A stretch of DNA of 64,000 nucleotides from Candidatus Spongiisociaceae bacterium (lineage in GTDB: Bacteria > Actinomycetota > Acidimicrobiia > Spongiisociales > Spongiisociaceae). Positions 397 through 64,000 of this stretch are shown here, one piece after another. The notes beneath the pieces were generated by a model that had not been told where the DNA came from, searched no databases, and saw only the letters and a program-made list of their open reading frames with translations. How positions within the stretch are numbered: the stretch's first letter is position 1; each line of letters begins with the position of its first letter. A program made the translations under genes and the position numbers. Where the stretch lies: the NCBI GenBank assembly GCA_965262915.1, contig OZ253564.1:1165597-1229596 (forward strand), read 5' to 3'.

Positions 397-398
397 CC

Positions 399-470
399 GA
401 GTGGTCTGTCTGTGAAGGGCCGTCGCTGGCAAGCAGGCCGCAGCGAATCACTTTGCGGACAGACCACTAG
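399..470. repeat. Small inverted-repeat element, family C (arms GAGTGGTCTGTCTG / CGGACAGACCACTAG)
   Basis: Arms at 399-412 and 456-470 are reverse complements. The same arm sequence recurs at 20122, 20270, 31474, 31526 and 61765. The right arm overlaps the beta-subunit stop codon. Confidence 0.45.
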
Positions 471-1797: not shown

Positions 1798-1807
1798 ACG
1801 GACCCTC

Positions 1808-3588: not shown

Positions 3589-3601
3589 GGTTGCTCCTTC
3601 C

Positions 3602-4066: not shown

Positions 4067-4078
4067 GGATTCTCCTTC

Positions 4079-4498
4079 CTAGACGATCGACACCGCGTCG
4101 AGGCGTTTGACCGCCAGCCTGCGGTACAGGATGTTCTGATCCCAGAACCCCCGGATGGAAGTTATCCGGCCGTCGGAGACGCCCAGCATCCATACTTGGT
4201 CGAGGTCGATGTGTTTTTCCTGGTTGACGACGCCTAGATAGTCGGCGGCCTGGGTGCCCTCCATCTTCAATTCCGTGACCGCCGTACCGTCGGTTCCCAT
4301 GAAGTGGTTCTTGGTGGTGAGAAGAAGATCCGGGAAGGCCGTGACCGTGGCCGCGAAGAAGCCTCTGGCCTCGTCCCTGCCACCCTTGACGTTGGCCGCC
4401 AGAAGATCGACGGTGGCGTCGGCCGAGACCAGATCCATCGCTCCGTCAACATCCCCTGCACTGATCGCGTCCCAGAAGGCGCCGGCTGTGTCGGACAT
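4079..4498 (-). CDS. SnoaL/NTF2-like fold protein, second copy
   Basis: MSDTAGAFWDAISAGDVDGAMDL... Start at ATG 4498 with GGGAGG 8 nt upstream. Confidence 0.65.
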   Translation of the reverse strand: MSDTAGAFWDAISAGDVDGAMDLVSADATVDLLAANVKGGRDEARGFFAATVTAFPDLLLTTKNHFMGTDGTAVTELKMEGTQAADYLGVVNQEKHIDLDQVWMLGVSDGRITSIRGFWDQNILYRRLAVKRLDAVSIV

Positions 4499-4514
4499 CG
4501 GCATCACCTCCCTG

Positions 4515-6315: not shown

Positions 6316-7572
6316 TTGATAGCTACACCCCCGGCGAGCTGGCACCTGGCACCTGGCACCTGGCACCTGGCACCTGGCACCTGGCACCTGGCACCTGGCT
6401 ACAAGGTGATCCCCGACCCCGACGCTCCGGGGCGTCACAACTACTTCCCGCATCAGGGGTTGGGCGGTATAAGGATGTTCTCCGCTCTCTGCCGGAAGCT
6501 GGAAGCGGATGGCGGCCGTATCCTCCTCGGAACGGGCTTCTCGCGATTACGGACCGGCGACCGGGGCGAAGTGGTAGGGGCGGTGTGTAACAGCGACCGA
6601 GGCGTCATCGATGTCGACGCCGCGGCGACCGTGCTGGCGACAGGGAGTTTCAGCCGCAACACCGAACTCAAGGTGCGGTACTTCGGAATCAACGGCGACC
6701 GCACCAGCTATTACGGTTCCCGCCATCACGACGGGGACGGCATCCTGGCGGCGCTGGATGTGGGTGCCTCGGTTAGCAGCGGCATCTCCGTGAGCACCGG
6801 CGGATGTGTGTTCGCCCCGCCCTTCGAGCCGCCCGACGACCGGCACGTGTTCCTGGGGGGCGGGAGTGGTCTGGCATTGGAGCAACGCCGGATGCCCGAG
6901 CCGGTGCCTTCCGGTGTCCAGCGGCTCAGCCTCCGCCCGCCGATCTGGGGTGACGAGCCGTCGATCCTCGTGAACCTCGACGGCGACCGCTTCGTCGACG
7001 AGTCCTCCCGCTACACGGTGATCGGCTGGGCGACGACCGGCCAGCGCGAGGGGCTGGGCTTCTGCATATTCGACCACCCGGTCTACGTGGAATACGCGGA
7101 GACCATCGAGGTCGCCCGCGGGATGGGTGCATGGACCTTGCGCGCGAACACGGTCGAAGAACTGGCTCTCGGACTTGCCGGCTGGCGGAGGACTCCCTCA
7201 TACAACGAAGGCGTGAACCCCCGCCGGCTCCTCCGTACGCTGGCCGAATACAACGCGGCCGCCCGGGGCCGCAGGCTGGATGACCTGTGGCCGCCACGCA
7301 AGGAGGGCGGCCGACCCCTCAACCGGCCCCCCTTCTACGCTTCGCCTGTGGTTCAAGGGGTAGTGGACCCGGCGGGTGGATTGCGCATCGACTCGGATGC
7401 CCGGGTTCTCGACCGAGGAGGGCGCCCCATCGCAGGTCTCTTCGCGGCAGGCGCCGACGCCGGCCGCGCCTACACGCGCGAGCACGGGGGCTTCGCCTTC
7501 CGTCTGATCTTCGGCCGCCGCGCGGGAACCAGTGCGGCATGGCTGTCGAGTCAGGTGCCTGACCGCCGCTAG
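6316..7572 (+). pseudogene. FAD-dependent oxidoreductase (fumarate reductase/KstD-like flavoprotein) lacking the N-terminal FAD-binding fold
   Basis: Homology begins at FPHQGLGGIRMFSALCRKLEADGG, roughly 130-150 aa into such proteins. No GxGxxG segment is present. The N-terminus is replaced by translated heptamer repeat (WHLAPGT)n. Confidence 0.6.
6339..6399. repeat. Heptanucleotide tandem repeat, 8 full GGCACCT units plus partial units
   Basis: Perfect 7-bp periodicity at 6341-6396. Same unit as the 22-copy array at 48542. Open in all six frames. Confidence 0.95.
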
Positions 7573-21490: not shown

Positions 21491-22651
21491 TTCCTTAGTT
21501 TCTTTGCCATATGCTGCTAGAATATGCAGGTCAGTAGCAGTCAGTAGTGGGAGCAGCGTATGGAGAAGCAGCGGGGTCGTAAAGCAGTGGTTATCGAGCT
21601 GGATGAAGAGGAACGCCAGACGCTCGAGCGGTGGATACGGCGGCGTAGCACCGCACAAGGGTTAGCGATGCGGTCTCGTATCGTGCTGGGAGCGGCCGAA
21701 GGCCGCACCAATGTGGACATCGCAGCGGAGGTGGGCTGCAGCGGGGTTACGGTCTCGAAGTGGCGGAACCGTTTCGCCCGGCGCCGTCTCGACGGCCTCT
21801 ACGACAATCCCCGCCCCGGGCCGCCCCGCCGCATCGACGACGCCAAGGTAGAAGAAGTGGTGGTCAAGACCCTCGAGGAAACACCGAGAGACGCGACGCA
21901 CTGGTCGACCCGGTCCATGGCGAGGGCCGTCGGCCTGTCCCAGTCGTCGATCCTAAGAATATGGCGGGCGTTCGGTCTCAAGCCGCACCGGACCGAGCAT
22001 TTCAAGATATCTCCCGACCCCCAGTTCGTGGAAAAGGTCCGCGACCTGGCGGGTTTGTACCTGAACCCGCCCGACGCGGCGGTGGTGCTGTGTGTGGACC
22101 ACAAATCCCAGATACAGGCCCTCGACCGCACCGCGCCGATCCTGCCCCTGTTGCCCGGAACCCCCCAGCGGCGCACCCACGACTACCGCCGGTACGGCAC
22201 CACCAACCTCCACGCCGCGCTCGACACGGCCACCGGCCGGGTCATCACCTCCATGACACGACGCAACCGCACCCAAGAATTCCAGACGTTCCTAAACCTC
22301 ATCAACCGCGAAGTCCCACCAGAACTCGACGTCCATGTCGTGTTGGACAACGCGTCGCCCCACAAAACAGAGCCCATAGGGCGCTGGCTGCAACGCCATC
22401 CACGGTTCACGTTCCATTTCACACCCACCTACGCGTCGTGGATGAACCTCGTCGAGCGATGGTTCTCCGAACTCACCACCAAACAGATACGCCGAGGCAC
22501 CCACCGATCCGTAGCCGAACTCACCGACGCCATCAACCAATGGACCCAACACTGGAACCAAAACCCCAAACCCTTCATCTGGCACAAAACCGCCGACCAA
22601 ATCTTCGACAACCTCACCAACTATCTACAACGAATCCCCGAATCAGGACAC
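21482..22651 (+). mobile_element. IS630-family insertion sequence (1170 bp) with TA target duplication
   Basis: Perfect 12-bp TIRs GTGTCCTGATTC (21482-21493) and GAATCAGGACAC (22640-22651), flanked by TA at 21480-81 and 22652-53. Confidence 0.9.
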
Positions 22652-22654
22652 TAG
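21560..22654 (+). CDS. IS630-family transposase (HTH plus DDE domain)
   Basis: 364 aa. N-terminal HTH regions and DDE-type core (VVLCVDHKSQ..., VLDNASPHK..., ASWMNLVERWF). The stop TAG uses the flanking TA. Confidence 0.92.
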   Translation: MEKQRGRKAVVIELDEEERQTLERWIRRRSTAQGLAMRSRIVLGAAEGRTNVDIAAEVGCSGVTVSKWRNRFARRRLDGLYDNPRPGPPRRIDDAKVEEVVVKTLEETPRDATHWSTRSMARAVGLSQSSILRIWRAFGLKPHRTEHFKISPDPQFVEKVRDLAGLYLNPPDAAVVLCVDHKSQIQALDRTAPILPLLPGTPQRRTHDYRRYGTTNLHAALDTATGRVITSMTRRNRTQEFQTFLNLINREVPPELDVHVVLDNASPHKTEPIGRWLQRHPRFTFHFTPTYASWMNLVERWFSELTTKQIRRGTHRSVAELTDAINQWTQHWNQNPKPFIWHKTADQIFDNLTNYLQRIPESGH

Positions 22655-39739: not shown

Positions 39740-42112
39740 TCAACTACGGCGCGCCTGGGAGGTGCGTGTCGAGGCAGCGGTCTCATGGAGCGCCGGCGCA
39801 ACCTTTCTGAATAGCCGCCAAGCGCCGTCGACATCGAGGAGTCGGGCGCCTGCAGACTCGTACGAGAGCGTCTTGTCGAGCACCCAGTCCCATTTGTCTA
39901 TCTCCCGATTCTCGATCACCGCAGCCAACCCGGCGGTCGTAGGAGGTGGGTTCTCTAGGAACTGACCGATCACCTCTGCTACCTCGTCGGGGCCGGTCCC
40001 GCATATCCGGATGGCGGGGCCTTCGACGCCCACTTTGATTCCTGCCTGATGCAGGGCGATCATCGCGGTATACAGGGCGCGATCGCCGGTCCATGGAAAC
40101 AGCAGGACATCCCCGCCATCCCGGACCACGGTTCGCTTGCCCAGCCGGAATTGCTTGAACGCGGCCCGACCCTCGGCGAGCAGGTCCCTCGCGCCGGCGT
40201 CGAGCCATGTCGGGGTTTCGGTCGACGCGTAGACGGCCAGCATCTCCGCCCGAACCTCATTCGACACCGCGGGACCATGGCTGCCGGAGAAGAGGGGGGC
40301 GCCGCCAGTGGATTGTTCGAGCTCGACCACCCGGGCCGGTTTGTCGATGCCTGTCACCTTCCAGCGCTTCCCGGCGAAGATCATCAGCATCCCTTCCCGG
40401 AGGGGCTGGTAGATGGGGATCGTACCCAGAGTCCTACCACCGGTCACGACCCGCCATTCGTCGGCAGTGTGGAACGCGACATAGAAGCGGTAGTGGTTGA
40501 CGTGGCGTTCGCCGACCACCCCGTGCAGCAGCTGCCCGTCGGAGGATTGGATCAGAAGATCGTGGGACGCCATGGCTCGGAGCAACCGGACGAACCGAGC
40601 CTGGTCGACGAGGTGGAAGGGACCCGGCCCGCACAGGGCGCGATACAGGTCGGCCGCCCTCGCTCCGCCGTGCTGGGCGATGGTCGACATGATCTGCTGG
40701 ATCAGCGTCGAGTAATTGAATCCGGGATCGTCGGCGGATTCGAGCCACCTCTGGAGCATGAGGCGCACCATGGCGGTCGTCTGCACGACCCCGCAGCGCA
40801 GCCGGTCGACCGGGAGGGACCGCTCGTCGAGGGATGGTTCGCTGATGTAGAGGCGCAGCAGGGCCGGGTCGTCGCGGCGGCCCGATCTCCCCAGCCGCTG
40901 CCAGAGGGATGCGACCGATGGCGGCGGGCCTATCTGAGCCACGCTCGTTACCGAGCCGATGTCGATTCCCAGCTCGAGCGTGGACGTGCTCACCGCGGTC
41001 GCCGGTCGGGTTCGGTCCTTCATCTGCGCTTCGGCCGCCTCGCGCAGTTCCTTGGACAGGTTGCCGTGATGCGGCCAGAACTCGTTGGGGACCCGCTCCC
41101 GGTCACTTCGACGGGCGAGCAGGTCGGCGTAGGTCTCCACGTGATTGCGCGTGTTGGCGAACACCAGGTTGTCCTGGCCGCGCAGATGCCTGAACAGGTG
41201 CTCGGCTATCTCTGTCGCGTCCCCGTTCACCGTCTCTTCGACAGCTACTTCGCGGCCGGCCCGCTCGGCGTTTTCGGCCTGGTGGGGTGATACCGGTGGC
41301 GGGGTGGCCACGTACCCGCGCAGCTGCAGCATCAACCCCCGGCCGTCCGACTTCGACTCAACTATCAGGACCTGCTCCGGGTCGGTCGGGCGGAGAAACG
41401 CGGTGGCCTGATTCATGTCGCCGAGGGTTGCCGACAGCCCGATACGGGGTGGTCGTAGGCGGACCGCCAGCTCGACACGGTTCATCAGCGACTGCAGTTG
41501 GACTCCCCGTTGCGTGGCCAGGAAGGAGTGGAGCTCGTCGATCACGATGTAGCGCAACCCGACGAACAGCCTCGGCACGAGGGAGCCCCGGTTGACGAAG
41601 GTCGACTCCAAAGACTCGGGAGTTATGAGCAGTACACCGGACGGTCGGGCTATCAGGCTCTGCTTCGCCGCCGCCGAGACGTCCCCGTGCCAGCGATGCA
41701 CGGGGACATCCACCCGTTCGCAGATCCGTTCCAGGCGTTGATACTGATCGTTGATCAGGGCCTTCAGCGGCGAAAGGTACAGAGCCTGCACCCCGACGGA
41801 GGGTCCGGTCGCCGGTTCCGCCCACGGGTCGTAGGCCGTCCACGGATCTCGTTCCCCCGATGTCGGCTGGTCGGTGGCGCCGGCAAGGGTCGACAGGATA
41901 GGGAGGAAGGCGGCTTCGGTCTTTCCGGAGGCGGTCGCCGCGGCGATGATCAAATCACGGTCACCGTCAATGATCGGACCGATGGCGCGCTCCTGGGCGT
42001 CGTGCAGCGAGGTCCACCCCTGGTCGTATATCCAGCGCTGTATCCGAGGATGCAGCCGGGTGAACGCCGACGACGGGGCAGCTTCAGAGACGGAAGTGGG
42101 TGAGATGGTCAT
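39740..42112 (-). CDS. Lhr-like DEAD/DEAH-box helicase (third gene of the TerB-ATPase-helicase cassette; Shango SngC-like)
   Basis: Motif I AATASGKTEAAFLP, motif II VIDELHSF, motif III SATLG, long C-terminal extension. Start uncertain (ATG 42112 or GTG 42157); both overlap the upstream gene end. Confidence 0.85.
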   Translation of the reverse strand: MTISPTSVSEAAPSSAFTRLHPRIQRWIYDQGWTSLHDAQERAIGPIIDGDRDLIIAAATASGKTEAAFLPILSTLAGATDQPTSGERDPWTAYDPWAEPATGPSVGVQALYLSPLKALINDQYQRLERICERVDVPVHRWHGDVSAAAKQSLIARPSGVLLITPESLESTFVNRGSLVPRLFVGLRYIVIDELHSFLATQRGVQLQSLMNRVELAVRLRPPRIGLSATLGDMNQATAFLRPTDPEQVLIVESKSDGRGLMLQLRGYVATPPPVSPHQAENAERAGREVAVEETVNGDATEIAEHLFRHLRGQDNLVFANTRNHVETYADLLARRSDRERVPNEFWPHHGNLSKELREAAEAQMKDRTRPATAVSTSTLELGIDIGSVTSVAQIGPPPSVASLWQRLGRSGRRDDPALLRLYISEPSLDERSLPVDRLRCGVVQTTAMVRLMLQRWLESADDPGFNYSTLIQQIMSTIAQHGGARAADLYRALCGPGPFHLVDQARFVRLLRAMASHDLLIQSSDGQLLHGVVGERHVNHYRFYVAFHTADEWRVVTGGRTLGTIPIYQPLREGMLMIFAGKRWKVTGIDKPARVVELEQSTGGAPLFSGSHGPAVSNEVRAEMLAVYASTETPTWLDAGARDLLAEGRAAFKQFRLGKRTVVRDGGDVLLFPWTGDRALYTAMIALHQAGIKVGVEGPAIRICGTGPDEVAEVIGQFLENPPPTTAGLAAVIENREIDKWDWVLDKTLSYESAGARLLDVDGAWRLFRKVAPALHETAASTRTSQARRS

Positions 42113-43439
42113 CGTCGGGTGCTGGTCTCGGGATGGACGGCGGGGCGCCGTTGCCACTCTTGAGCGGTGCGAGGTCCGGATTGGTCTCCGCTTCGATCTC
42201 GACCCGGTCGATCAGATCGGACCAGTTCACGCCGGGGTTCTGGGCGAGCACCGAGAGGAGGTTCACGAACTCCTTGATGGTGGTCCGCGGTGTGCGGAAG
42301 TAGGCGTCACCCACACGCGACGCGCAATGGTCCATGAAGGCGGGCAAGGCTTCGTCGGGTACGAGGTAGGCGTCCGGATCGCCGCTCGCGAACACGTGCC
42401 GGAGTTTGGTGAGCAGCACGTAAATATCCTCGGGGGACAGGTTGGCGAGGCGCAATACCGGACCGGAGAAGTCAACGAGCCCCTTACGGGCGAAAGTGTT
42501 CTCGGCAAGACGTGACTGCAGGGCCGGGTACGAGTAGAGGCCGCGCCGGGTGTCTAACAGCATGTCCGGAGTGCCGCCGAACACGAACCCGAGCCCGGCA
42601 GCCGAACCCTGCAGGCAGTCGTTGAGGATGCGAAGCACCTGTTCGTAGTTGGAGTTGCGGGCCCTGGTATGCGACATCTTGTACAGATTCACCATCTCGT
42701 CCAGGCAGACGAGGAGGCCTGAGAACCCGGCCAGACGGACGAACCGCGCGAACAGCTTGAGATGGTCGTAGAAGCTCCGGTCGTCGATGATGGTGCGCAC
42801 TCCGAGCGCTTGCCGTGAGTCGGTGCGGGTCGAGAACTCGCCGCGTAGCCAGCGCACCACATCGGAGCGCAGTTGTTCGTTGCCGTTGTCATGGGCGCGC
42901 CAGTAGGCGGCGATTACTTCGGCGAAGTCGTATCCGCCGACCATCTCCTGGAGATCGGCAAGCCGTTCACGGATTACCGTCTCCGGGCTGATGTCTCGGG
43001 AGCGGGCGGCGCTCAGACCGGCCGTGATGAACCGTTCCACCACCGACGGCATCGCGCCGCCCTCCGGCTTCGCTCGCGTCGACAGGTTGCGCATCAGCTC
43101 GGCGTACAGACCGCGCGCCTGACCGCCGGTCGCGTAGAGGCGGCGTTCGGGTGACAGGTCGGCGTGGACGGTGACGAGCTTTCGTTCGAGCGCGATTGAA
43201 CGGACCAGGTTCAGGAAGAAGGACTTTCCGGCCCCGTACTCGCCGATCACGAGACGGATCGCCGAACCGCTGTCGGCGATCCGGTCGATGTCAGCGACCA
43301 CAGCGGCCACTTCGTCGGCGCGTCCGACCTGGATGTGTTGCTGGCCGACCCGTGGTACGACGCCGGCCCGCAAGGACTGGATGATCGCGTCGCGGTCCCG
43401 CGGGCGGATACGGCCGGTGGGACGGGTTAGGGATGTCAA
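42084..43439 (-). CDS. P-loop ATPase of the DUF2791/BREX BrxC-D-like type (Shango SngB-like)
   Basis: Walker A GEYGAGKSFF and Walker B-like LLVCLDEM. 4-nt overlap with the TerB gene stop. Confidence 0.75.
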   Translation of the reverse strand: MTSLTRPTGRIRPRDRDAIIQSLRAGVVPRVGQQHIQVGRADEVAAVVADIDRIADSGSAIRLVIGEYGAGKSFFLNLVRSIALERKLVTVHADLSPERRLYATGGQARGLYAELMRNLSTRAKPEGGAMPSVVERFITAGLSAARSRDISPETVIRERLADLQEMVGGYDFAEVIAAYWRAHDNGNEQLRSDVVRWLRGEFSTRTDSRQALGVRTIIDDRSFYDHLKLFARFVRLAGFSGLLVCLDEMVNLYKMSHTRARNSNYEQVLRILNDCLQGSAAGLGFVFGGTPDMLLDTRRGLYSYPALQSRLAENTFARKGLVDFSGPVLRLANLSPEDIYVLLTKLRHVFASGDPDAYLVPDEALPAFMDHCASRVGDAYFRTPRTTIKEFVNLLSVLAQNPGVNWSDLIDRVEIEAETNPDLAPLKSGNGAPPSIPRPAPDDDHLTHFRL

Positions 43440-45685
43440 GTCAGTTCCTCCACAGCGTAGGCATTGAGTACCACAGGGTTGTCACCCTCTACAAGAGGTT
43501 CGCCGCAGGCTTCCATTGCGGCTTCGTTGATCACGTCGATAGCGCCGTCGAGGAACGGCAATCCGAACGAATCGGCCATCTCCTCGGCGAAGCGGCGCTC
43601 CCACTCCGATCGGGAGGCGAGGGCCGCAAGGAGCCGCGAATGCGGCCCGTCAAGACCCTCGATCATCGATCTGGGTTCCGAGCCGGGCGTACGGGATTCC
43701 GTCTCCGGTGGTGGGTCGTCGTCTACGAAGATGTCGGTCAGCAGGTTCGACACACGGTCCGTCTCGGCCAGACGGGCTTGGATCTTTGCAGGGTCCAGGG
43801 CTACGGGACGGCGCCGCGCGGCAATCGTGCCGGGGTTGGGAAGTTCCCAACCAGTGTTGGGCGCCCCCTCTCGAACGGTGACCGGGCCGGTATCCCCCAG
43901 GTCGAGAGTATGGGCGCGGCTATACAGGTGGGATTCGTCGAGGCCCATATGTTCGAACAACCTTTCCAGGACGGCGATCTCTTTGTGATTGACGACCCCG
44001 TCGGCGGCTGCAAGCTCGATCAGAAGACTTCCGACTTTCGGCAGATCGTCGGGTTCCATCGCCTTTATCTTGCGTTTGATGCCGTACATACGGGGTTTTC
44101 GCACACCGAGCAATGCCAAGTGCGCTTGCAGCCTGGCCCGATCGGCGGTATCAAGCCCGGTGATCCCTTCCAATCGTTCAGCGAGAAACCGGTGTTCGAA
44201 GGAGTTGATCTTCCCGTCCGCTGCGGCCACTATCGCACTCAGATACACCAGCGACAGGGCGGCGCCGTACAAAGTGGGTTTCGCCCGCCCACCCTCGGGA
44301 AGCGAGAACAACACCGCATGCGTACCCGGACTTGGAGTAGGCGCACCGAAACGGACGTCGGGTTCGATTCCCACCTCGACGTTGGCGAGCATGGACGCCA
44401 GAGCAGAGGCGTCGGTCTTGGTGAGTTTCGAGGTGTGGCCGGGTGACCACATTTCCACCAGTTCATCGAGGAAAACCACCGCCCGCGGCCTACCGGCCAG
44501 TTGTTCCGATGTCCAGGCCCGGAGACCCTTGAGGATCGGACCACCGTGCTCGACAAGCAACACGTCGGGTAACAGCCCGACCGCGGCCGGGGTCCCGACC
44601 CAATCAGGGTGGCGCCCGATCAAGCGGCTGTAGGCATCGAGTTCATTGTCGCATTGCTTGGCCAACTCGTTCAGCTCGGTGATCAGCGCCGGTTCGAGCG
44701 TTACGTCAGGAATCCTGTCGAGGGTGATGAACACGCCTCCGTCGAATCCGGAGGATGTGGCCCGGTACGAGAGCCTGATCTTCCTCGCCGGTCGTGGCAC
44801 CCGGAGACCCGGTCCGAACCGCGCCCTGTAACGTATGCCGAACAGTTCGTCGAACTCGGCGGCAGCGCGCTTGGCCGGTGTTCGTAGCCGCCCCTCGGGA
44901 TGGTGCCGGAGGTAACTGAGGGCCCATTCGGCCGGGATGGCGGACCGTTCCGAAACATACTTGCCGATGCAGACTCGAACCGCGGCCGGTACGCCGAGCT
45001 TTGCGCGACCGGAATCCCATGGGACCGGTTGTGCGTCAGTGTTCACCGACAGCACGCCTTCCACGAAATCCAGCAGTTGACCCGCGCTCCCAGCGAATGA
45101 ATGCTCCTCGCGGTAGATGCCTAGGAGACGTTCGATCTCGGCCAGGATGATCGCGACCTCCGGAAGGTGGAGGTCGGCGCCAAGGTCGGCGAACAGACGC
45201 CGTTCGAGCCCGTAGAAGAACAAGAACACGTAACCGATGTAGGCGGACCTGTCCTGGCGACCCCCGGCCAGCCACTTGAGATAGGCGGCCCGAACGCGCG
45301 GGTTGGCTCGTCCGTACGACGGGTCGTGATGCATGGAAGCTCCGGTGCGATCCGCGCTTTTCCAGTTGACCGGAAGCCGAGGATCGATGAGGCTTGGCTC
45401 GGGTCCGCGTCCGTTCGCCGCCAGGGCGCCGTTGCCGATGTAGACCATCCCGCCTTCGATCGAACGGCCGGCCACGTCGATCTTCCCACCGGGTGGGACC
45501 CAGGTTGCCGGACCTCGCTTGGATCGCTTCCCTGACCACCGAAGCGGGCCGCTGTCCCACCAGTAAGGCGTCGGCGGGCCGCGCTTCGTGTTCCGTTCGG
45601 GACGGTTTGTCCCACGCTCGGGCCGGCTCACAACCCCCCTTTCAGGTACCGCCTGTCGGCTAGAGGGGAAGTGCCCGATCGGCAT
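43436..45685 (-). CDS. TerB-N / TerB / TerB-C domain protein (Shango SngA-like)
   Basis: N-terminal WVPPGGKIDVAGRSIEGGMVYIGNG...EPSLIDPRLPV (TerB-N-like). Central AIVAAADGKINSFEHRFL (TerB-like). C-terminal LDGPHSRLLAAL...FLDGAIDVINEAA (TerB-C-like). Start at ATG 45685 or 45706; the ORF-track start at 46087 overlaps vapBC and is rejected. Confidence 0.75.
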   Translation of the reverse strand: MPIGHFPSSRQAVPERGVVSRPERGTNRPERNTKRGPPTPYWWDSGPLRWSGKRSKRGPATWVPPGGKIDVAGRSIEGGMVYIGNGALAANGRGPEPSLIDPRLPVNWKSADRTGASMHHDPSYGRANPRVRAAYLKWLAGGRQDRSAYIGYVFLFFYGLERRLFADLGADLHLPEVAIILAEIERLLGIYREEHSFAGSAGQLLDFVEGVLSVNTDAQPVPWDSGRAKLGVPAAVRVCIGKYVSERSAIPAEWALSYLRHHPEGRLRTPAKRAAAEFDELFGIRYRARFGPGLRVPRPARKIRLSYRATSSGFDGGVFITLDRIPDVTLEPALITELNELAKQCDNELDAYSRLIGRHPDWVGTPAAVGLLPDVLLVEHGGPILKGLRAWTSEQLAGRPRAVVFLDELVEMWSPGHTSKLTKTDASALASMLANVEVGIEPDVRFGAPTPSPGTHAVLFSLPEGGRAKPTLYGAALSLVYLSAIVAAADGKINSFEHRFLAERLEGITGLDTADRARLQAHLALLGVRKPRMYGIKRKIKAMEPDDLPKVGSLLIELAAADGVVNHKEIAVLERLFEHMGLDESHLYSRAHTLDLGDTGPVTVREGAPNTGWELPNPGTIAARRRPVALDPAKIQARLAETDRVSNLLTDIFVDDDPPPETESRTPGSEPRSMIEGLDGPHSRLLAALASRSEWERRFAEEMADSFGLPFLDGAIDVINEAAMEACGEPLVEGDNPVVLNAYAVEELT

Positions 45686-45753
45686 GCCGCCGTGACAACC
45701 GACCATTATGGTACAAATCCGATGACTCTGAAGCCTTGGTGTATACTGAACCA

Positions 45754-45978
45754 ATGCGGCGTATACAGCTATACATGGACGATGACCTCGATGAAGCGCT
45801 ATCCGGCGAGGCGGCTCGTCTGGGCGTCTCCCGTTCGGAGCTCGTGCGAGACGCAGTGAGGGTCTCGCTACGCGGCTTTCTCGACGCTGATCGCGATGCG
45901 GTCGACGATCTGATCGGCTGGATCGACGTGGAGCCGGACGACGATATCGATTCGGTGGTCTACGGGCTCGAAGAGTGA
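45754..45978 (+). CDS. vapB: Ribbon-helix-helix (CopG/VapB-type) antitoxin
   Basis: MRRIQLYMDDDLDEALSGEAARLGVSRSELVRDAV is an RHH fold pattern. GTGA overlap with vapC. TATACT -10-like hexamer upstream. Confidence 0.75.
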   Translation: MRRIQLYMDDDLDEALSGEAARLGVSRSELVRDAVRVSLRGFLDADRDAVDDLIGWIDVEPDDDIDSVVYGLEE

Positions 45979-46376
45979 GGTTCGCCGATACATCGTTCTG
46001 GGTCGGCCTCCAAGTCGCGCGAGACCGCCGACATGCCGACGCAGTCGAGCTATGGCAGCGTGATCGCAGGCCCGTGCGGACTTCCAACCTCGTCCTCGGC
46101 GAGACATGGACGTGGCTACGGCGAAGAGCCGGTCACCCGGCAGCCGTGCGCTTTCTGGAAACGCTCGCGCAGTCCAGGCGCGTATCGGTGGTGACAGTGG
46201 ACGAGACCATAGATCAGCAGGCGTGGGTATGGCTTCGCCGCCACGACGAGCGGAAGTACTCGTATGTGGATGCCACGAGCTTCGCGATCATGCGCCGCGA
46301 GCGCATCACCGAAGCGTTGGCGTTCGACGGTGATTTCACCGCGGCGGGCTTCGTCGAGGCCCGACCTCACCGATGA
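45975..46376 (+). CDS. vapC: PIN-domain toxin VapC
   Basis: FADTSFWV...NLVLGETW...YVDATSFAIM...ALAFDGDF carries the conserved acidic PIN residues. Confidence 0.85.
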   Translation: MRFADTSFWVGLQVARDRRHADAVELWQRDRRPVRTSNLVLGETWTWLRRRAGHPAAVRFLETLAQSRRVSVVTVDETIDQQAWVWLRRHDERKYSYVDATSFAIMRRERITEALAFDGDFTAAGFVEARPHR

Positions 46377-46383: not shown

Positions 46384-47205
46384 GTGACCGGCCTTACCCG
46401 GGAGATCGCTCGTTGGATCGAGTCGGTCGATCCGGGGACGATCGACGACGATACCCGGGCGGTCGTGTCCGGTTTGGTAGCCCGCGTGCTGAACGCGACC
46501 GCCGGGTCGGAGGGTGACGGGCGACAGGGTCCGACTCGCCTCGGTCTCGATCCCGTGGTTGACGCCCACTCATTCGCTGCCGGCCTGCGCGCCGAAACCC
46601 TTTCGGAACAGCAGGCGGGTCTCAGGGAGCTCGCCGCTCCGGTCGCCAGAGCGGCGCTGGCGATAGCGGTTCACCACCCATGCTCCGGTGCATCGCTGGG
46701 CGCCGCGGTCCTGGCCGGCTGCGAGCTGGGCCTGCTGCTGGCCGAGATGGCGGGCGCTGGTAGTGACTCTCGATTTCGTGCCTCGGCGGCGACATGTGCA
46801 GCTATCTCGGCTGCTCGGGTCCTTGATCTCAGCGGCGATCGGCTCGTCTGGGCGATCGGTATCGGGGCCAGCAGTTCGGTCGGTGCCGCCTATGTCCTAG
46901 ATGCTGCTTGGCAGGCCGGGAAGTCGGCGTCCAACGGAGTGCTGGCTGCCCTCCTCGCCGATGCAGACTTCACCGGTCCCGCCGACGCCATCGAACATCC
47001 CCGGGGTCTTCTCGGCGCGGTGTTCGATATGCGTGCGCCGGTTGGTACAGCAGGGGATCTGGGCAACCGGATAGGTGCAATCGAACCCCTGATCTCCTCG
47101 GCAGGAACTGCCGACGGTTTCGGGGACAAGGCGGCCGGGATGTGGGAGATGGAAAGGGCTTCCGATCTGGTTGCCGCAGTGTTTCCCGACCGGAGGTCGC
47201 GTTGA
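46384..47205 (+). CDS. Short MmgE/PrpD-related protein
   Basis: GTG 46384. About 273 aa with PrpD N-domain-like pattern. Stop overlaps the TTG start of the next gene. Confidence 0.5.
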   Translation: MTGLTREIARWIESVDPGTIDDDTRAVVSGLVARVLNATAGSEGDGRQGPTRLGLDPVVDAHSFAAGLRAETLSEQQAGLRELAAPVARAALAIAVHHPCSGASLGAAVLAGCELGLLLAEMAGAGSDSRFRASAATCAAISAARVLDLSGDRLVWAIGIGASSSVGAAYVLDAAWQAGKSASNGVLAALLADADFTGPADAIEHPRGLLGAVFDMRAPVGTAGDLGNRIGAIEPLISSAGTADGFGDKAAGMWEMERASDLVAAVFPDRRSR

Positions 47206-48536
47206 TCGGGACCGCGGTTCTCCCACGGTTGGCAGGCTTTGCGCTCGGTCCCCTCGATCTGCCCGATGAGGTAGCGCACGCCGGTCGCCGGACCGTTCTC
47301 AATGCGCTGGCGCTGGCGGTCGGTGCCGCCCGGCATCCTGCTGTCGATGCGGCTTGCGAGGTGGTTTCGCGCCTGACCCGGCGCCCTGAAGCATCGATCC
47401 CCGGCCGGTCCGCCCGGGTGGAGGCGGAGTGGGCGGCTTTCGTAGGAGGCATAGCGGTCCACGCCGAGGACTACGACGACACCCACCTGGGCACCGTCGT
47501 GCATCCGGGCGCCCCGGTCGTTCCTGCCGCCCTAGCCGCTGCCGAGTTGTACAGGAGCAGCGGACGCGAACTGCTGGAGGCTGTGGTGGTCGGGGTGGAG
47601 GTTGCATGCCGGGTGGGCCTGGGTCTCGGGCCGGGTCACTTCGACCGCGGATGGCACCTCACGGGGTCGACCGGCCGGTACGGCGCCGCCGCTGCGGCCG
47701 CCCGCCTGGCCGGGTTGGACGAGGCCACGCTGGCCGGGGTGTGGGCCCGCTCTGCAGCCGAGACGGCCGGGGTCCAGGCGGCCTTCGGCACCATGACCAA
47801 GCCGTACCATCCCGGCAAGGCTGCCTACGACGGGATCCTGGCGGTACAGGACACCGTGGACGGGCGCCGGCCTGCTCCGATGACCGCGGAGGAGGAGACG
47901 AACATGTTCCATGCGCTGGGTCCCGACCCGGATCCCCCGAAGGTCACTACCGGCCTGTGCGAACAGTGGGAGACCGCGCTGAACACATTCAAACCGTATG
48001 CCTGCGGGATCGTCAGCCATCCGGTCATAGATGCGGCGGTCGAAGCCCGGACCCGTATCGGGGGCCGGATCAACCGGATCACGGTTACCGTCAATCCCAT
48101 CGTGCTCGACGTGATGGGTGTCGAAGAGCCAGCCCACGGCCTGGAGTCGAAGTTCAGCGTCTACCACTGCGCGGCTATCGGTCTCCTCGACGGGGTCGGA
48201 GGGCCGGCCCAGTTCTCCGACGAGCGGGTCAACTCCCCGGACACGACCGCGCTGCGCCGCAAGGTCGAGGTGATCACCGATCCGAGCATGGCCCGGGATG
48301 CGGCCCGCCTGGTAGCGGATACGGCGGACGGGCGGCGGGTCGAAGTGAGGATCGACCACGCCAGGGGGAGCGCGGCGCGACCCATGACCGACGAGGATCT
48401 CGCCTTCAAGGCCCGTGACTCGATGCAGCCCGTCATCGGTGATGCCGCCGACGATCTCATCGACATGGCCTACTCCATCGAAGCTCACGAAGTACGGGAC
48501 ATCATGCAGGTGGCCGCCTCAGGGGCTGGGATGTGA
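47202..48536 (+). CDS. MmgE/PrpD family protein (2-methylcitrate dehydratase-like)
   Basis: TTG 47202 after GGAGG. AVHAEDYDDTH...HPGAPVVPAALAAAE...GVEVACRVG are typical PrpD family segments. Confidence 0.85.
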   Translation: MIGTAVLPRLAGFALGPLDLPDEVAHAGRRTVLNALALAVGAARHPAVDAACEVVSRLTRRPEASIPGRSARVEAEWAAFVGGIAVHAEDYDDTHLGTVVHPGAPVVPAALAAAELYRSSGRELLEAVVVGVEVACRVGLGLGPGHFDRGWHLTGSTGRYGAAAAAARLAGLDEATLAGVWARSAAETAGVQAAFGTMTKPYHPGKAAYDGILAVQDTVDGRRPAPMTAEEETNMFHALGPDPDPPKVTTGLCEQWETALNTFKPYACGIVSHPVIDAAVEARTRIGGRINRITVTVNPIVLDVMGVEEPAHGLESKFSVYHCAAIGLLDGVGGPAQFSDERVNSPDTTALRRKVEVITDPSMARDAARLVADTADGRRVEVRIDHARGSAARPMTDEDLAFKARDSMQPVIGDAADDLIDMAYSIEAHEVRDIMQVAASGAGM

Positions 48537-49348
48537 GCGAGGGCACCTGGCACCTGGCACCTGGCACCTGGCACCTGGCACCTGGCACCTGGCACCTGGC
48601 ACCTGGCACCTGGCACCTGGCACCTGGCACCTGGCACCTGGCACCTGGCACCTGGCACCTGGCACCTGGCACCTGGCACCTGGCACCTGGCACCTGGCAG
48701 GTTCCTGTCCGGTCGAGCCTCGCCGACAAGTGCTCACCTACGGTTGCGGCCCTGGTGATCGTGGACATGGTGAACGACTTCGTCCACCCCCGCGGTCTGA
48801 CCGCCACCAGGAGCGGCCGCTCAGTAGAAGCAGGCCGATCCTCTATCGAGCCGATCCGCACCCTCGCCGTCGTCGCCCGCCACGCCGGAGTACCGGTCGT
48901 GCATGTCCAACACTCGACGTCGCCCGACGACGCCAGCCACTCCGGTCCGTGGGTCGATGCCCGCAGGCGGGCCAGGTACAGCGCCCTCGACATATGCCTC
49001 GACGGAACGTGGGGACAGCAGGTGGTGGACGAGTTGGCCTCCGAGGACGGCGATATCGTCGTGAAGAAGCACCGCGATAGCGGGTTCGCCCGCACCGAGT
49101 TGGACCGCGTCCTGGGTGAACGCGGGCGTGAGACCATCGTGGTGTGCGGGGTCTCGACCAACGTCTGCGTCGAGTCGACCGCCCGCCAGGGTTTCGATCT
49201 TGACTACTACGTGGTTATCCCCGAGGATGCATGCATGTTATGGGACAACCGGCTGCACGAAGCGGCGCTGGAGACCGCCCGCCACCGTTACGCGGTTGTG
49301 TGCCAGACCTCGGATCTGATTTCGATATGGCAGGATTACCGGCCATGA
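48533..49348 (+). CDS. Isochorismatase-family cysteine hydrolase with the heptamer array translated as an N-terminal extension
   Basis: GTG 48533 overlaps the PrpD stop. No ATG/GTG/TTG exists between the repeat and the conserved ALVIVDMVNDF. Catalytic VVCGVSTNVCVESTAR. The domain is in frame with the start only at the present repeat length. Confidence 0.75.
   Translation: MSEGTWHLAPGTWHLAPGTWHLAPGTWHLAPGTWHLAPGTWHLAPGTWHLAPGTWQVPVRSSLADKCSPTVAALVIVDMVNDFVHPRGLTATRSGRSVEAGRSSIEPIRTLAVVARHAGVPVVHVQHSTSPDDASHSGPWVDARRRARYSALDICLDGTWGQQVVDELASEDGDIVVKKHRDSGFARTELDRVLGERGRETIVVCGVSTNVCVESTARQGFDLDYYVVIPEDACMLWDNRLHEAALETARHRYAVVCQTSDLISIWQDYRP
48542..48699. repeat. Heptanucleotide tandem repeat, 22 perfect GGCACCT units plus a partial unit
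   Basis: Counted directly: units start at 48542+7n, n=0..21. No interruption. Open in all six frames (WHLAPGT / ARCQVPG peptides in the ORF track). Confidence 0.97.
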
Positions 49349-50226
49349 GCCGATCACGGATCCCATTCTCCCAGTCGTGGGACCGGCCTGCGTTGGCGCC
49401 CCCCGACGGTAAGCTGATCATCGTCCAGATCGTGGTCAACCTGGAACTGTGGCGCTTCGATGCAGCCCTGCCCAGGTCGCTGCTACCCGCGCCGCACGGC
49501 GAGCCCCGCATACCCGACGTGCCCAACTACTCCTGGGTGGAGTACGGGCTACGCAGCGGCTTGCCGCGCATCCTGCGTCTCTTCGGATCGCTCGGAGTGC
49601 CGGCCTCCGCCTCTGTCAACGCACTCCTCTTCCAGGCCGAGCCCGCCATCGGGGAGCGGATCGTCGAGGCCGGCTTGGAGATGGTGGGGCACGGGACCGA
49701 GCAACGTGCTCTGGCTGCCCACACGGAACGGGATACGGTCCGCGCCACCCTCGATATGCTTGAGGAGTTCTCGGGTTCCCGGCCGCGGGGTTGGTTGGGC
49801 CCCGGACTACAGGAGACCTTCGAGACACCGGACGTTCTCGCCGAGGCCGGCATCGATTACGTCCTCGATTGGGCGGTTGACGACCTACCCGTCTGGATGG
49901 ACACCCGGCGCGGGCCACTGTTGGCGGTTCCCTACAACCTGGAGATCAACGACAGCCTGCTGTTCGGCGTCGAGAGGCACCCCTCTCGAGAGTTTGCGGT
50001 GCGGGTGGAAGACACCCTCAGGGTCTACGAGCAGGAGACCGGGTCGGAACCCCGGATCCTCACCCTCGGCCTGCATCCCCACCTGATCGGGATCCCCCAT
50101 CGATTCGTCTACCTCGAGCAGGTGCTGGGTGAGCTTGCTGCAAGGATCGATACGGTCTTCATGACCGGTTCGTCCATCGCCGACTGGTACCGGGCGGAGG
50201 TACCTCCAGAAGGGAGTCATCCATGA
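49345..50226 (+). CDS. Polysaccharide deacetylase family protein (PuuE-like)
   Basis: ATGA overlap with the isochorismatase stop. 293 aa with deacetylase-like pattern (...VGHGTEQRAL..., ...LGLHPHLIGIPHR...). Confidence 0.7.
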   Translation: MSRSRIPFSQSWDRPALAPPDGKLIIVQIVVNLELWRFDAALPRSLLPAPHGEPRIPDVPNYSWVEYGLRSGLPRILRLFGSLGVPASASVNALLFQAEPAIGERIVEAGLEMVGHGTEQRALAAHTERDTVRATLDMLEEFSGSRPRGWLGPGLQETFETPDVLAEAGIDYVLDWAVDDLPVWMDTRRGPLLAVPYNLEINDSLLFGVERHPSREFAVRVEDTLRVYEQETGSEPRILTLGLHPHLIGIPHRFVYLEQVLGELAARIDTVFMTGSSIADWYRAEVPPEGSHP

Positions 50227-50537
50227 GCGTGGTGAAGATCAACGCCATCACGGTGCCGGACGGGATGGGTGGAGAACTGGAAGAGCGCTTTGCCAAGCGC
50301 GCTCATCAGGTGGAGAGGATGGAAGGCTTCGAAGGGTTCGAGCTACTCCGACCTGTCGGCGGTGAGACCCGCTACTTCGTCTACACGAGATGGCGGTCGG
50401 AGGAGGACTTCCAGCGGTGGGTCAGCGGCCAGGAGTTCCGAAGGGGCCACTCGCAGTCCGATCCGGGATCCGAACGCCGGCCGGTCGGAATCGCTTCGGA
50501 GTTGCTCTCGTTCGAGGTGGTCGAGCACGTCGAGTAG
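50223..50537 (+). CDS. Antibiotic-biosynthesis-monooxygenase (ABM) domain protein
   Basis: ATGA overlap. MSVVKINAITVP...FELLRPVGGETRYFVYTRWRSEEDFQRW is a typical ABM/IsdG-like fold. Confidence 0.8.
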   Translation: MSVVKINAITVPDGMGGELEERFAKRAHQVERMEGFEGFELLRPVGGETRYFVYTRWRSEEDFQRWVSGQEFRRGHSQSDPGSERRPVGIASELLSFEVVEHVE

Positions 50538-56612: not shown

Positions 56613-57206
56613 ATGAGGGCTGGCAACAGTGTCAGTCTCGCCGTCACCGTCGCCGTCGCCCTGACCATCGTTGCTGTCTCGTGCGGACGTGGCAGCGAGG
56701 ACATAAGTAACCCTGACCTGTCGCCAGCGACCCCGGACCTGTCGCCAGCGACAACAAGTGAGACCCAGAGCAATCCGGACCCGTCCTCAGCGACAAGAGC
56801 GGACCTGTCCCCAGCGACAAGAATTGAGCTCCAGGCCCGCGCTTTGTCTGCTGCCTGTTTTTCGGTGTCCTGTGACACGAAGCCCGTGTACGCGTACCTA
56901 CATGCTGGCCCCGACGTGAGGGCCGCGCTGGAGGATGCGTTTGGAACGGATGTCGAGTTTCTCTCATACCAAGAACTCCGGGATGCGACTAGGTCTAATA
57001 GCACCTATGCCTACGGGGCAACTCTCTTTGACGTGATGCGGCGGACTTATCTCCCAGCGGACGGTGTAGCAGCTGTCGATATCTGGATAGGAGAGGGTTT
57101 CGGTATCGGGAGAGGAACCACGTTCCTGTTCAGGTGGAGCGGTGCAGGGTGGGAGCCGGTAACGCCTGCCGAAGCTGGCGTTACCGTGACGAGCGCCGTG
57201 ACGTAG
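56613..57206 (+). CDS. Lipoprotein with PDLSPAT-type repeats
   Basis: Signal peptide plus lipobox (LTIVAVSCG). 21-bp DNA repeats at 56711-56752 and a diverged copy near 56800. Confidence 0.55.
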   Translation: MRAGNSVSLAVTVAVALTIVAVSCGRGSEDISNPDLSPATPDLSPATTSETQSNPDPSSATRADLSPATRIELQARALSAACFSVSCDTKPVYAYLHAGPDVRAALEDAFGTDVEFLSYQELRDATRSNSTYAYGATLFDVMRRTYLPADGVAAVDIWIGEGFGIGRGTTFLFRWSGAGWEPVTPAEAGVTVTSAVT

Positions 57207-59440: not shown

Positions 59441-60415
59441 AAGGCCTGGTGGTTTCGCCTGGTCCCGCCCGGTGTCCTGGATCGGTGATAATACGGGCCG
59501 TCTCCGGCAGGGCACCAGGTGCGGCCGATGCCCGGAAACGCGGGAGTTCGTCTACTAGCCCGGTCTCCGCTGACCATCGTTGCCGGGAACAGGACGATGA
59601 CGACCCCACCCCAGCCCTACCCCAACCCCCTCTCATGATCGGATGGTCGGGTACCCAATTCGGGAGGGAGGGGTGAACCCGTGCAAACTGGGGTGGGCAG
59701 GCTGTCTAGGTCGTATTCGGACCCTCCCGGGCCTTAGATCGGCTTGTAGACCTTTGGGTCGTGTTGGTTAGCGTTCCGAACACGGTTTCTGGGGTGTTAC
59801 CGCCCGAAACCCCCTCGAGGAGTTTCGCCGCCACGGCGTGCTGAGGGAACCGGTTACCGGGCTGTTCGCCGGGTGGCGACGGATCACCTTTCCGCTGGAG
59901 GGACTCAGGGGGAGTTAGGGCTGGTCGGGGTGTTTCAGGACAGCCAGCGCCGCAGCTCCCCGTCCAGGTTCTCGCCGGCGTGGGGGATGACCCCGGATGC
60001 GGTGTGTAGCTGTCCGTCGGCGTCTACGGTGACGGCCGGGGTCGGGCCGCCGTCTAGGACTTCGATGTGTCCGTTTTGGTTGATGTGGGACAGCACGCTT
60101 ACAGCCACGTTCGTCCCTTTCGGGTGCCGGTGTGTTTGAGGGTACCGGGACGGTGTGACAGACGGCCGCCGGAGACGTTCAGCACGGCGGGTTCTTGGTC
60201 ATCGGACTGGTTCGGAGGGTTGATGGTCTTCGCCGAGGCTGGGGTTGTTGGTTCTACTGGCTTGGGTGCCGTTTCTGTGGCGGGCTGTTGAACAGTTTAT
60301 GGCCGCCGAGCTACTGTCCCGGAACGCTCGACGCGGCCTGGCTGTTCGGTGTCGGTGGCAACCGGCTGACACTTTCGTTGAATGTCGCGTAGGTGGGCAG
60401 GGCTCGGTGCGTATC

Positions 60416-61207
60416 ATGGTGATCATGAGGTTCCGTTACTTGGCCGGAGTGGCCATTGTCGGTGTTGTATTCGCCTTGGCGGGGTGCGGAGGTGGTTCCG
60501 ACGAACAGGCCGAGTCCGTTGAGCCGGTTGTGACTTCGGCGGCTGCAACGCCGATAGCGACAACCTCAGCCACGACATCCGTCGGCACCGCGGCACCAGC
60601 GTCGACTGTGGTGGAGGATACTCCCCCTGCGTCCACCACGACCGGCCTGGTTTCGACGACCGTGACGTCGGTGGTGGAGGAAGCGGTGACCACTACGGTT
60701 GCAGAGACGACCATGGTTGCAGAGACGACCATGGTTGCAGAGACGACCGTGGTTGCAGAGACGACCGTGGTTGCGGAGTCTGCTGTGGTCGTCCCCGAGG
60801 GTCCCCGTGTTCCGGCTGTCACTCTTGAGCTGGACGACGGCACCGTCTTCGTTTCGACCGAAGCTACCAGGCCTGTTCTCTACCTGTTCTGGGCTGAGTG
60901 GTGACCGGCATGTCGGCGGGAGTTGCCTGTCGTCGATTATTTGGCCGGTGAATATGCGGGCCGGGTGGATGTGGTCGCGGTCGCCTGGGCTTCGACGTAT
61001 GAGAAGACGGCCTCGGCTGCCCGTGGTTACCTCAGGTCGGGGGCTACCCGCTGGTTGCTGGACGAGGACGAGTCGGTGTTTGCTGCCTTCGAAGTGGGGT
61101 ACCAGCCGGTTGGGGTGTTTGTGGTGGACGGTGTGGAGGTGAACCGCTGGTTGGGGACTCTTCCCGAACAGGAACTGCGCGACGCCTTCGACAGCGCGAC
61201 CGCTTGA
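60416..61207 (+). CDS. TlpA/ResA-like thioredoxin-fold lipoprotein with an in-frame TGA at the first Cys of the CxxC motif (candidate selenoprotein, otherwise pseudogene)
   Basis: Signal plus lipobox (VFALAGCGG), Thr/Val-rich linker, then ...PVLYLFWAEW[TGA 60902-04]PACRRELP... continuing in frame as ORF 60923..61207 (thioredoxin-fold remainder). Confidence 0.6.
60698..60787. repeat. 18-bp tandem repeat (4 near-identical units plus 1 diverged) encoding VAETT(M/V)
   Basis: GTTGCAGAGACGACC(A/G)TG repeated from 60698, inside the linker of the TlpA-like lipoprotein. Confidence 0.8.
60914..60932 (+). other. Hairpin 9 nt downstream of the in-frame TGA (candidate bacterial SECIS)
   Basis: CGGCGGG-AGTTG-CCTGTCG, a 7-bp stem (two G-U pairs in RNA) with a 5-nt loop containing GU. 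Confidence 0.3.

Positions 61208-62989: not shown

Positions 62990-64000
<1,011 letters not shown>

Follow-up and report, generated by a model that had tools for sequence, protein, structure and literature searches.

A candidate frame-switching heptanucleotide repeat at the translated 5' end of an isochorismatase-family hydrolase gene in an uncultured high-GC bacterium

Frame switching by simple-sequence repeats (SSRs) is textbook biology in host-adapted pathogens, where it affects surface and restriction-modification genes. To our knowledge, there is hardly any record of it in catabolic operons or in uncultured, free-living bacteria of high GC content. Here we analysed a 64,000-nt stretch of DNA of Candidatus Spongiisociaceae bacterium (Actinomycetota, Acidimicrobiia; assembly GCA_965262915.1, contig OZ253564.1, positions 1,165,597 to 1,229,596 of the forward strand), hereafter called the window. 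It harbours a long, perfect array of the heptanucleotide GGCACCT at the 5' end of a gene for an isochorismatase-family hydrolase, the third gene of a five-gene operon. This array is probably a hypermutable, frame-switching repeat that toggles the translation of a coupled operon gene.

The described system most similar in its architecture is neuO of Escherichia coli K1. It codes for an O-acetyltransferase, is carried by prophage CUS-3 and contains 3-53 AAGACTC units in its 5' coding region, with the gene ON at every third count (PMC13001214). Of 64 complete genomes of E. coli K1, 65.6% had it OFF (PMC13001214). For neuO, the main unit count accounts for 93% and neighbouring counts for 2-5%. As in neuO, the array of the window is made of a stop-free 7-nt unit that directly follows the start codon, in the coding region, and is translated as a tolerated heptad, with a full-length product at every third count. 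The natural range of lengths is similarly wide, from 1 to ~33 units here, and ON and OFF genotypes coexist. Unlike in neuO, the unit is GGCACCT, the product is an isochorismatase-fold hydrolase and not an acetyltransferase, and neither gene nor unit is homologous to its neuO counterpart. With another unit, another protein fold and another host, the locus is an analogue of neuO and not a homologue. The settings differ as well. neuO is an AT-richer prophage gene of a pathogen whose product modifies a surface capsule and whose switching was measured by fragment analysis, whereas the gene described here codes for a cytosolic amidohydrolase and lies mid-way in a coupled, catabolic-type operon of five genes in an uncultured high-GC bacterium.

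In the SSR contingency loci of Haemophilus, Neisseria and Campylobacter, slippage near the 5' end of a gene generates ON/OFF frameshifts, and the 5' position maximises the loss of function (PMC2651432, PMC3315296, PMC11868660). The locus of the window resembles them by its repeat tract (22.6 perfect heptamers) within the 5' end of a gene and by its apparent localised hypermutation by slippage. Among the features stressed in a 2025 review, localised hypermutability and a defined gene product are found here. However, classical contingency loci consist of tetra-/pentanucleotide and homopolymer tracts, mostly in surface or restriction-modification genes of host-adapted pathogens, and they form whole 'phasomes', whereas two arrays are known here, in an environmental organism and with a metabolic target. 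A metabolic gene of an actinobacterium, glpK of Mycobacterium tuberculosis, undergoes reversible homopolymer frameshifts (as cited in PMC11868660), and most homopolymer indel rates in that species are lower by an order of magnitude than the rates typical of SSR phase variation (PMC11868660). Both glpK and the present locus are actinobacterial metabolic genes with indels in a repeat tract, but the tract of glpK is a short homopolymer, in contrast with a long multi-unit heptamer array that undergoes large length changes. The STRR heptamers of cyanobacteria form arrays throughout the genome. The TAACTGA direct repeats of Beggiatoaceae represent another case of genome-wide heptamer arrays (PMC4679880). 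In the window, one heptamer unit likewise recurs as tandem arrays at more than one locus. Nevertheless, the Beggiatoaceae and STRR arrays are intergenic, number in the hundreds and have been proposed to be regulatory, unlike the two arrays described here, of which at least one is translated and affects the reading frame. The initial annotation of this DNA, made from the sequence alone, had stated that no contingency locus of this kind was known to be described for a high-GC actinobacterial-type metabolic operon. This novelty claim was too broad, as neuO has the same architecture (PMC13001214) and glpK belongs to an actinobacterium (cited in PMC11868660).

The array in the hydrolase gene, hereafter array 1, consists of 22 perfect GGCACCT units followed by GGCA (Table 1). 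Tandem Repeats Finder (TRF) reported a period of 7, 22.6 copies, 100% matches and no indels, in agreement with the raw sequence. A two-unit GGCACCT probe with at most one mismatch yielded 28 matches in the window, compared with 0.03 expected from shuffled sequences. Array 1 starts 9 nt past the G of a GTG codon (48533-48535), which overlaps the TGA stop codon (48534-48536) of the preceding MmgE/PrpD-family open reading frame (ORF). This GTGA overlap would translationally couple the hydrolase gene to the MmgE/PrpD-family gene. Similar 4-nt start/stop overlaps are found at each junction of the five-gene unit, in the order TTGA, GTGA, ATGA and ATGA, the last two between the hydrolase and deacetylase-like genes (49345-49348) and between the deacetylase-like gene and that of the antibiotic biosynthesis monooxygenase-like (ABM) protein (50223-50226). 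The TTG start of the second gene, which overlaps the preceding stop, has a GGAGG motif 5 nt upstream. Neither the GGCACCT unit nor its complement contains a stop codon in any of the six frames, and all three forward frames code for one and the same cyclic peptide, GTWHLAP. Array 1 encodes ~7.5 copies of it, giving the hydrolase the N-terminus MSEGTW(HLAPGTW)nQVPVRSSLADKCSP. No in-frame ATG, GTG or TTG occurs between array 1 and the core motif, the first one being the GTG at 48755, inside ALVIVDM. The initial annotation had described this anatomy, from the 22 uninterrupted copies 9 nt past a GTG that overlaps the PrpD stop to the six open frames, the ~7.5 added heptads, the lack of a start codon ahead of the ALVIVDMVNDF core and the ATGA-joined downstream genes, and our analyses bear it out. 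Single-stranded DNA folding of array 1 was no better than that of shuffles for either strand (z = +1.4 and +0.4), and we rejected a special slipped-hairpin structure on this basis. Scanning the surroundings of the two arrays for promoters and terminators yielded nothing informative.

Table 1. Features of the window, with positions counted from its first nucleotide
Feature	Position	Strand	Evidence or remarks
Multicomponent toluene/phenol monooxygenase cluster (Phenol_Hydrox alpha and beta, TmoB, MmoB, Rieske ferredoxin, reductase)	1-4550	-	Annotations on relatives' contigs (L119, L120)
5'-truncated TcuA-like FAD-oxidoreductase ORF	6316..7572	+	Pfam, NCBIfam, alignment to full-length orthologues
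Second GGCACCT array (array 2), 8.7 copies, perfect	6339..6399	+	TRF, sequence
DDE_3/HTH transposase (IS630-like) ORF	21560-22654	+	
Shango anti-phage system, complete: SngA (TerB domains), SngB (BrxD-like ATPase), SngC (helicase)	39740-45700	-	PADLOC, E 1e-77 to 1e-265
RHH/PIN (VapBC-like) toxin-antitoxin pair, immediately upstream of the operon	45736-46376	+	Pfam
MmgE/PrpD N-terminal-domain-only protein, 273 aa, GTG start, first operon gene	46384..47205	+	Pfam; 273-aa calls in relatives
MmgE/PrpD-family gene, 444 aa	47202..48536	+	Pfam MmgE_PrpD_N and MmgE_PrpD_C; gene calls in relatives
GTGA overlap of the hydrolase GTG start and the TGA stop of the upstream gene	48533..48536	+	Sequence; same overlap in array-free orthologue L146
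Isochorismatase-family (RutB/biuret-hydrolase-like) cysteine hydrolase, 271 aa, in-frame ON allele	48533..49348	+	Pfam PF00857
Heptanucleotide array (array 1), 22 perfect GGCACCT units and GGCA	48542..48699	+	TRF, raw sequence, probe compared with shuffles
Second GTGA, possible reinitiation site	48755..48758	+	In-silico alleles
PuuE-allantoinase-like polysaccharide-deacetylase-fold gene, 293 aa	49345..50226	+	NCBIfam TIGR03212, PDB 3cl6
ABM gene, 104 aa, last in operon	50223..50537	+	Pfam PF03992, E = 1.4e-19
In-frame 21/24-nt tandem repeat, PDLSPAT-like	56711-56822	+	Linker of putative lipoprotein ORF 56613-57206
In-frame 18-nt tandem repeat, 4.6 copies, VAETTM/V	60697-60778	+	Linker of putative lipoprotein ORF 60245-60904
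ALIL pseudoknot, IS3-family programmed-frameshift element	63268-63384	+	Rfam, 104.8 bits

Orthologues without an array (P0003 and others; 219 aa, 79-85% identity) have the N-terminus MS(T/G)G(I)QVRSSLADKCSP and begin at the same GTGA-overlapping GTG, with MSTGIQVRSSLADKCSP. One of them, L146, shares this overlap at the DNA level, and its sequence reads GTG AGC ACG GGC ATC CAG GTC AGG TCG, where the window has GTG AGC GAG (GGCACCT)22 GGCA GGT TCC TGT CCG GTC G. Since the start codon and the N-terminal peptide are kept in the array-free orthologues, array 1 is, on this comparison, within the translated sequence. A start downstream of the array, which the initial annotation had listed as an objection to its own proposal, is thus countered by the conserved coupled start and N-terminus as well as by the lack of a canonical start codon before the core. 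The array appears to have grown inside codons 4-6 out of a GGCA..C.GG proto-repeat, which in the array-free orthologue reads GGCATCCAGG. An allele with a single unit is extant (P0127).

The protein clusters at 90% identity around the window hydrolase comprise members of 193, 215, 222, 226, 229, 243 and 271 aa. We read the array lengths from the contigs of the cluster members, which gave an allele series of 16 contigs, the window included, from at least nine assemblies, with about ten lengths in all. The source assemblies include the ENA analyses ERZ26167216, ERZ25071132, ERZ25068966, ERZ25069191 and ERZ25766727. In nine contigs the unit count is 1 mod 3 and the array is in frame, with 1, 4 (five contigs, on three haplotype backgrounds), 7, 10 or 22 units, the last in the window. 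Six others are out of frame. They carry 3 units, 6 units, 6 degenerate units (3x coverage), ~7 units with small irregularities (27x), 14 degenerate units, and 32 units with one irregular 10-nt unit (~33). One more allele, in L131 (~1395-1480), is of low confidence given its 5x coverage: the stop/start overlap is lost to a 4-nt deletion, which joins the PrpD-like gene and the hydrolase gene into one via 12 units, for a product of 690 aa. A different change is found in L147 (~2945-3005, 3x), where GTT has become GTG just past the degenerate 6-unit array, a new start that would bypass the array.

The flanks of four contigs differ from the window by only 0-0.17%, yet their arrays have 4, 4, 6 and ~7 units instead of 22. 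There are no mismatches in 5.9 kb for L124 and one in 6.3 kb for L132, both with 4 units, 35 in 20.6 kb for L006, with 6 units, and 12 in 20.6 kb for L007, with ~7 irregular units. At least three length changes have occurred within this clade of at most 0.17% per-site difference, and the mutation rate of the tract therefore exceeds that of an ordinary site by orders of magnitude. Its length changes faster than its surroundings, i.e. the hypermutability is localised, and ON and OFF lengths are interleaved among the close relatives of the window; no direct change from OFF to ON was seen. The initial annotation had recommended counting the units in related strains or metagenome-assembled genomes, and the six OFF alleles and roughly ten lengths show that the count is far from invariant.

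To define the consequences of length changes, alleles with 20-24 units were built in silico. With counts of 0 mod 3, a stop codon is met 60 nt past the array, for a product of 72-79 aa, and with counts of 2 mod 3 it is met 382 nt past the array, for a product of 177-184 aa. A change in length thus switches the product in silico, as anticipated in the initial annotation on the grounds that 7 is not divisible by 3 and that the enzyme requires the frame to be kept. The ATGA junction to the following gene is 650 nt past the array, well downstream of both shifted-frame stops, and translational coupling to that gene should therefore be lost. The natural OFF alleles were called as a 193-aa product that starts at the Met of VDMVNDF and is devoid of the invariant Asp. 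Because the only start found by the gene caller lies past the catalytic Asp, these alleles are predicted to be null. In alleles of 0 mod 3, the shifted frame ends at the TGA 48756-48758, which overlaps the in-frame GTG at 48755 in a GTGA motif identical to that of the natural junction. Termination-reinitiation at this GTG may give rise to a truncated enzyme that retains the catalytic Asp, and one of the OFF frames may be leaky.

The ORF of the hydrolase runs through array 1 into the Isochorismatase domain of Pfam (residues 72-260, E = 3.5e-45). Its Asp-Lys-Cys triad (D78, K179 and C212) is invariant among 31 homologues, and this triad and the isochorismatase fold (PF00857) place it in the family. 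Among solved structures, RutB (8bkd, E = 1e-25) and biuret hydrolase (6xjm) are its best relatives, and RutB and BiuH are its best matches in NCBIfam and PDB, with NCBIfam scores under the equivalog cut-offs. The deacetylase-like protein matches TIGR03212 with E = 5e-29, below the cut-off of this model, and PuuE (3cl6) with E = 5e-22. Based on the proximity of the hydrolase to RutB and biuret hydrolase and of the deacetylase-like protein to PuuE allantoinase, at scores below equivalog cut-offs, the operon looks like a ureide or cyclic-amide catabolic module. An AlphaFold model of the hydrolase has a predicted local distance difference test score (pLDDT) of >90 in the core, whereas the repeat has a pLDDT of 38-51 with no secondary structure, and residues 1-36 are below 50. 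The model fits a repeat that forms a tolerated, disordered N-terminal extension.

No allele has an internal stop codon in the core ORF, and the ratio of non-synonymous to synonymous substitution rates (dN/dS) relative to the window is 0.17-0.23, including in lineages that are currently OFF. An intact core under such constraint even in OFF lineages speaks for OFF states of recent origin or short duration. The hydrolase gene (48700-49350) is also a mosaic. Comparisons of the window with L001, L002, L004, L005, L008, L125, L131 and L147 revealed two blocks, the first ~320 nt past the array and the next ~350 nt, each with two allele classes that are 78-86% identical at the nucleotide level. Allele classes assort independently between the blocks, identity in the flanking genes is 98-100%, and the first divergent block starts right after the array. 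These features indicate recombination between alleles that appear to be old, divergent and functional; both classes look functional because of the low dN/dS values.

Taken together, these data make the following mechanism likely. Array 1 would be a hypermutable SSR in the translated 5' end of the amidohydrolase gene, and whole 7-nt units would be gained or lost at replication via slipped-strand mispairing, a step suggested by the allele series, whose differences are mostly of whole units. Since 7 is not divisible by 3, the GTG start would be linked to the enzyme core only at counts of 1 mod 3 (1, 4, 7, 10 and 22). At other counts, translation would end at either of the two shifted-frame stops, 60 nt or 382 nt past the array, with predicted null alleles that probably also uncouple both ATGA-joined downstream genes. 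In-frame alleles would bear a (GTWHLAP)n extension of variable length, predicted to be disordered and tolerated. The window would represent a long, perfect ON allele that should be among the least stable. We infer polarity on the deacetylase-like and ABM genes, as well as the rate and the reversibility of switching.

Several observations weigh against this mechanism or against a switch finely tuned by selection. The window allele has an Asp at position 182 (49076-49078), in the KHRYSGF motif three residues past the catalytic Lys, where at least 90% of the 31 homologues have a Tyr, as does the sister contig L006. When the common 4-unit allele is left out, the ON:OFF ratio is 4:6, no different from the random expectation of 1:2 (p = 0.44); it is 9:6 over all contigs (p = 0.03), a figure that includes 4-unit alleles that may be ancestral. 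Two OFF arrays, those of L125 and L147, are degenerate, which is expected of decay rather than of switching. The unit counts were read from consensus assemblies, the related contigs being long-read-style assemblies, several of them of low coverage. Most OFF alleles are on low-coverage contigs (3x-15x, and one of 27x), and other or neighbouring genes are split by frameshifts in low-coverage contigs. Some of the unit counts could thus be consensus errors. Nevertheless, in-frame alleles of differing length occur at 18x-49x coverage, and whole-unit differences are not typical of sequencing or read errors. As the ratio among derived alleles is like chance, any adaptive contingency role is putative, and we consider the chances to be about even that the array serves adaptive bet-hedging and is not simply a hot spot of mutation that is tolerated.

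Part of this evidence is also what an incidental microsatellite would produce, namely a mutation-prone tract tolerated in the disordered N-terminus of a dispensable accessory gene, with OFF alleles being losses of function en route to pseudogenes. The near-random ratio of derived alleles, the degenerate out-of-frame arrays of L125 and L147 and the Y182D substitution at a near-invariant position are in line with this, as is the presence of array 2 on a truncated, probably dead gene. So is the location of the operon, together with defence genes and a toxin-antitoxin pair, in what appears to be a variable island, since the region downstream of it harbours differing transposases in relatives. However, an incidental tract fits poorly with the purifying selection on the core and the lack of internal stops even in OFF lineages, with the persistence of in-frame alleles of 1-22 units and with the perfection of the long arrays, which implies recent and frequent turnover. 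On balance we consider it unlikely.

The length of the (GTWHLAP)n segment might instead modulate the activity, oligomerisation or stability of the hydrolase, frameshifts being a by-product. In-frame alleles do range from 1 to 22 units, the same heptad is encoded in all three forward frames, and the activity of NeuO reportedly rises with repeat number (PMC13001214). Nevertheless, the repeat is predicted to be disordered (pLDDT 38-51), orthologues manage without it, and six of the 16 contigs are out of frame, which would be intolerable for pure tuning. Such protein-level tuning thus appears quite improbable compared with frame switching.

The window contains a second GGCACCT array, array 2, whose length also varies: the distance between its anchors is 48 nt in L119 and in L121, 55 nt in L120 and 59 nt in the window, short-read-style scaffolds included. 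Array 2 is found exactly where a TcuA-like gene is devoid of its first ~75 codons, including the GSGIGG dinucleotide-binding motif. In the truncated ORF, the match to Pfam FAD_binding_2 starts at position 144 of the 414 of the profile, and NCBIfam TcuA covers 125-461 of 467. A 45-nt AT-rich stretch and the array occupy the place of the lost 5' end. Like array 1, array 2 is preceded by GCGAG. Relative to the short-read scaffold L121, ~80 nt are missing in the window (~6405-6410) between two TGATCC direct repeats past array 2; this loss and a 4-nt difference at the start of the array keep the truncated ORF open. By coincidence or otherwise, two arrays in a single 64-kb window share their unit and strand.

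We searched for GGCACCT arrays elsewhere. Arrays of at least 4 units were found in >110 places in GTDB species representatives (L009-L118), in many phyla, for example in Streptomyces, Gemmatimonadota, Acidobacteriota and Gammaproteobacteria, most with 4-7 copies and up to 17. They share no flank with one another, and none of them matched the window. Thus, the unit is not lineage-specific. In a crude ORF analysis, many of these arrays are <~100 nt from the start or the end of long ORFs, and many are flanked by degenerate units. In viral contigs, control heptamers of the same composition gave 2, 5 and 0 matches compared with 5 for GGCACCT, and the idea that this heptamer is globally special was dropped. 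A (GTWHLAP)10 protein query returned only short, unrelated ORFs from many organisms and none on the 5.05-Mb source contig, the search being of low power as cluster representatives mask long alleles. JGI metagenomes contained no match to the sequence downstream of array 1 or to the AT-rich flank of array 2, and a viral scan for the latter was negative too. Similarly, a literature search for GGCACCT in any rotation identified no bacterial description of such arrays, and one for the sample accessions gave no relevant result.

The two arrays, one in a translated 5' end and the other exactly at a gene-truncation junction, might represent a lineage-specific evolvability element and not two unrelated microsatellites, with the unit seeded at several loci that might also promote rearrangement and recombination with highly diverged alleles nearby. 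In support of this, the hydrolase gene beside array 1 is a mosaic of two classes of only ~80% identity, in strains that are 98-100% identical elsewhere. If true, a single-unit 'phasome' would couple frame switching with the allele shuffling of metabolic genes, but we regard this as a long shot. We deem it very improbable, in turn, that a dedicated process of this lineage, such as one that acts at break or rearrangement junctions, deposits or copies the arrays and that they do not stem from independent slippage. Such a generator would explain two long arrays of the same unit and strand 42 kb apart, both preceded by the same pentanucleotide, the position of array 2 exactly at a deletion/replacement junction and the start of the hyper-divergent mosaic patch directly past array 1. 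However, array 1 can be derived from the proto-repeat GGCATCCAGG and a 1-unit allele exists, single GGCACCT heptamers are not enriched in the window, the arrays found elsewhere have no flank in common, and control heptamers reach a similar frequency in viral contigs. Lastly, although long arrays are difficult to assemble, L007 is irregular and several contigs have low coverage, it is extremely improbable that the tract or its length was made by an assembler, given an array at the same site in 16 contigs with mostly whole-unit differences and coverage up to 49x, and array 2 in short-read-style scaffolds; recurrence in at least nine independent assemblies disposes of the artefact that the initial annotation had invoked as a way in which it could be wrong.

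SnoaL-like genes and a DJ-1/PfpI gene adjoin the monooxygenase cluster, based on the annotations of the relatives' contigs. The two tandem repeats of the putative lipoproteins are both inside low-complexity linkers. An insertion sequence is present at the end of the window, as indicated by the ALIL pseudoknot. This IS3-type frameshift pseudoknot was the only Rfam match in the window, and a tRNA scan of the window identified none. The GC content is ~64%, genes similar to those of F420-type LLM oxidoreductases are present, and an ImuA'-ImuB-DnaE2 cassette was found in a relative. The best named homologues are from Propionibacteriales and Streptomyces. Together, these features suggest Actinomycetota.

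The interest of this locus resides mainly in its setting, in a catabolic-type operon of an environmental bacterium that is uncultured and high in GC. Variation in repeat length goes unseen after clustering at 90% identity, and annotation pipelines call the OFF alleles as truncated proteins of 193 aa. A natural series of ON and OFF alleles is already available in public long-read metagenome assemblies, and the frame-switching hypothesis can be tested with existing reads. If it is true, the stochastic turning on and off of a catabolic function would reach past pathogens, and switches of this kind could be sought in long-read metagenomes.

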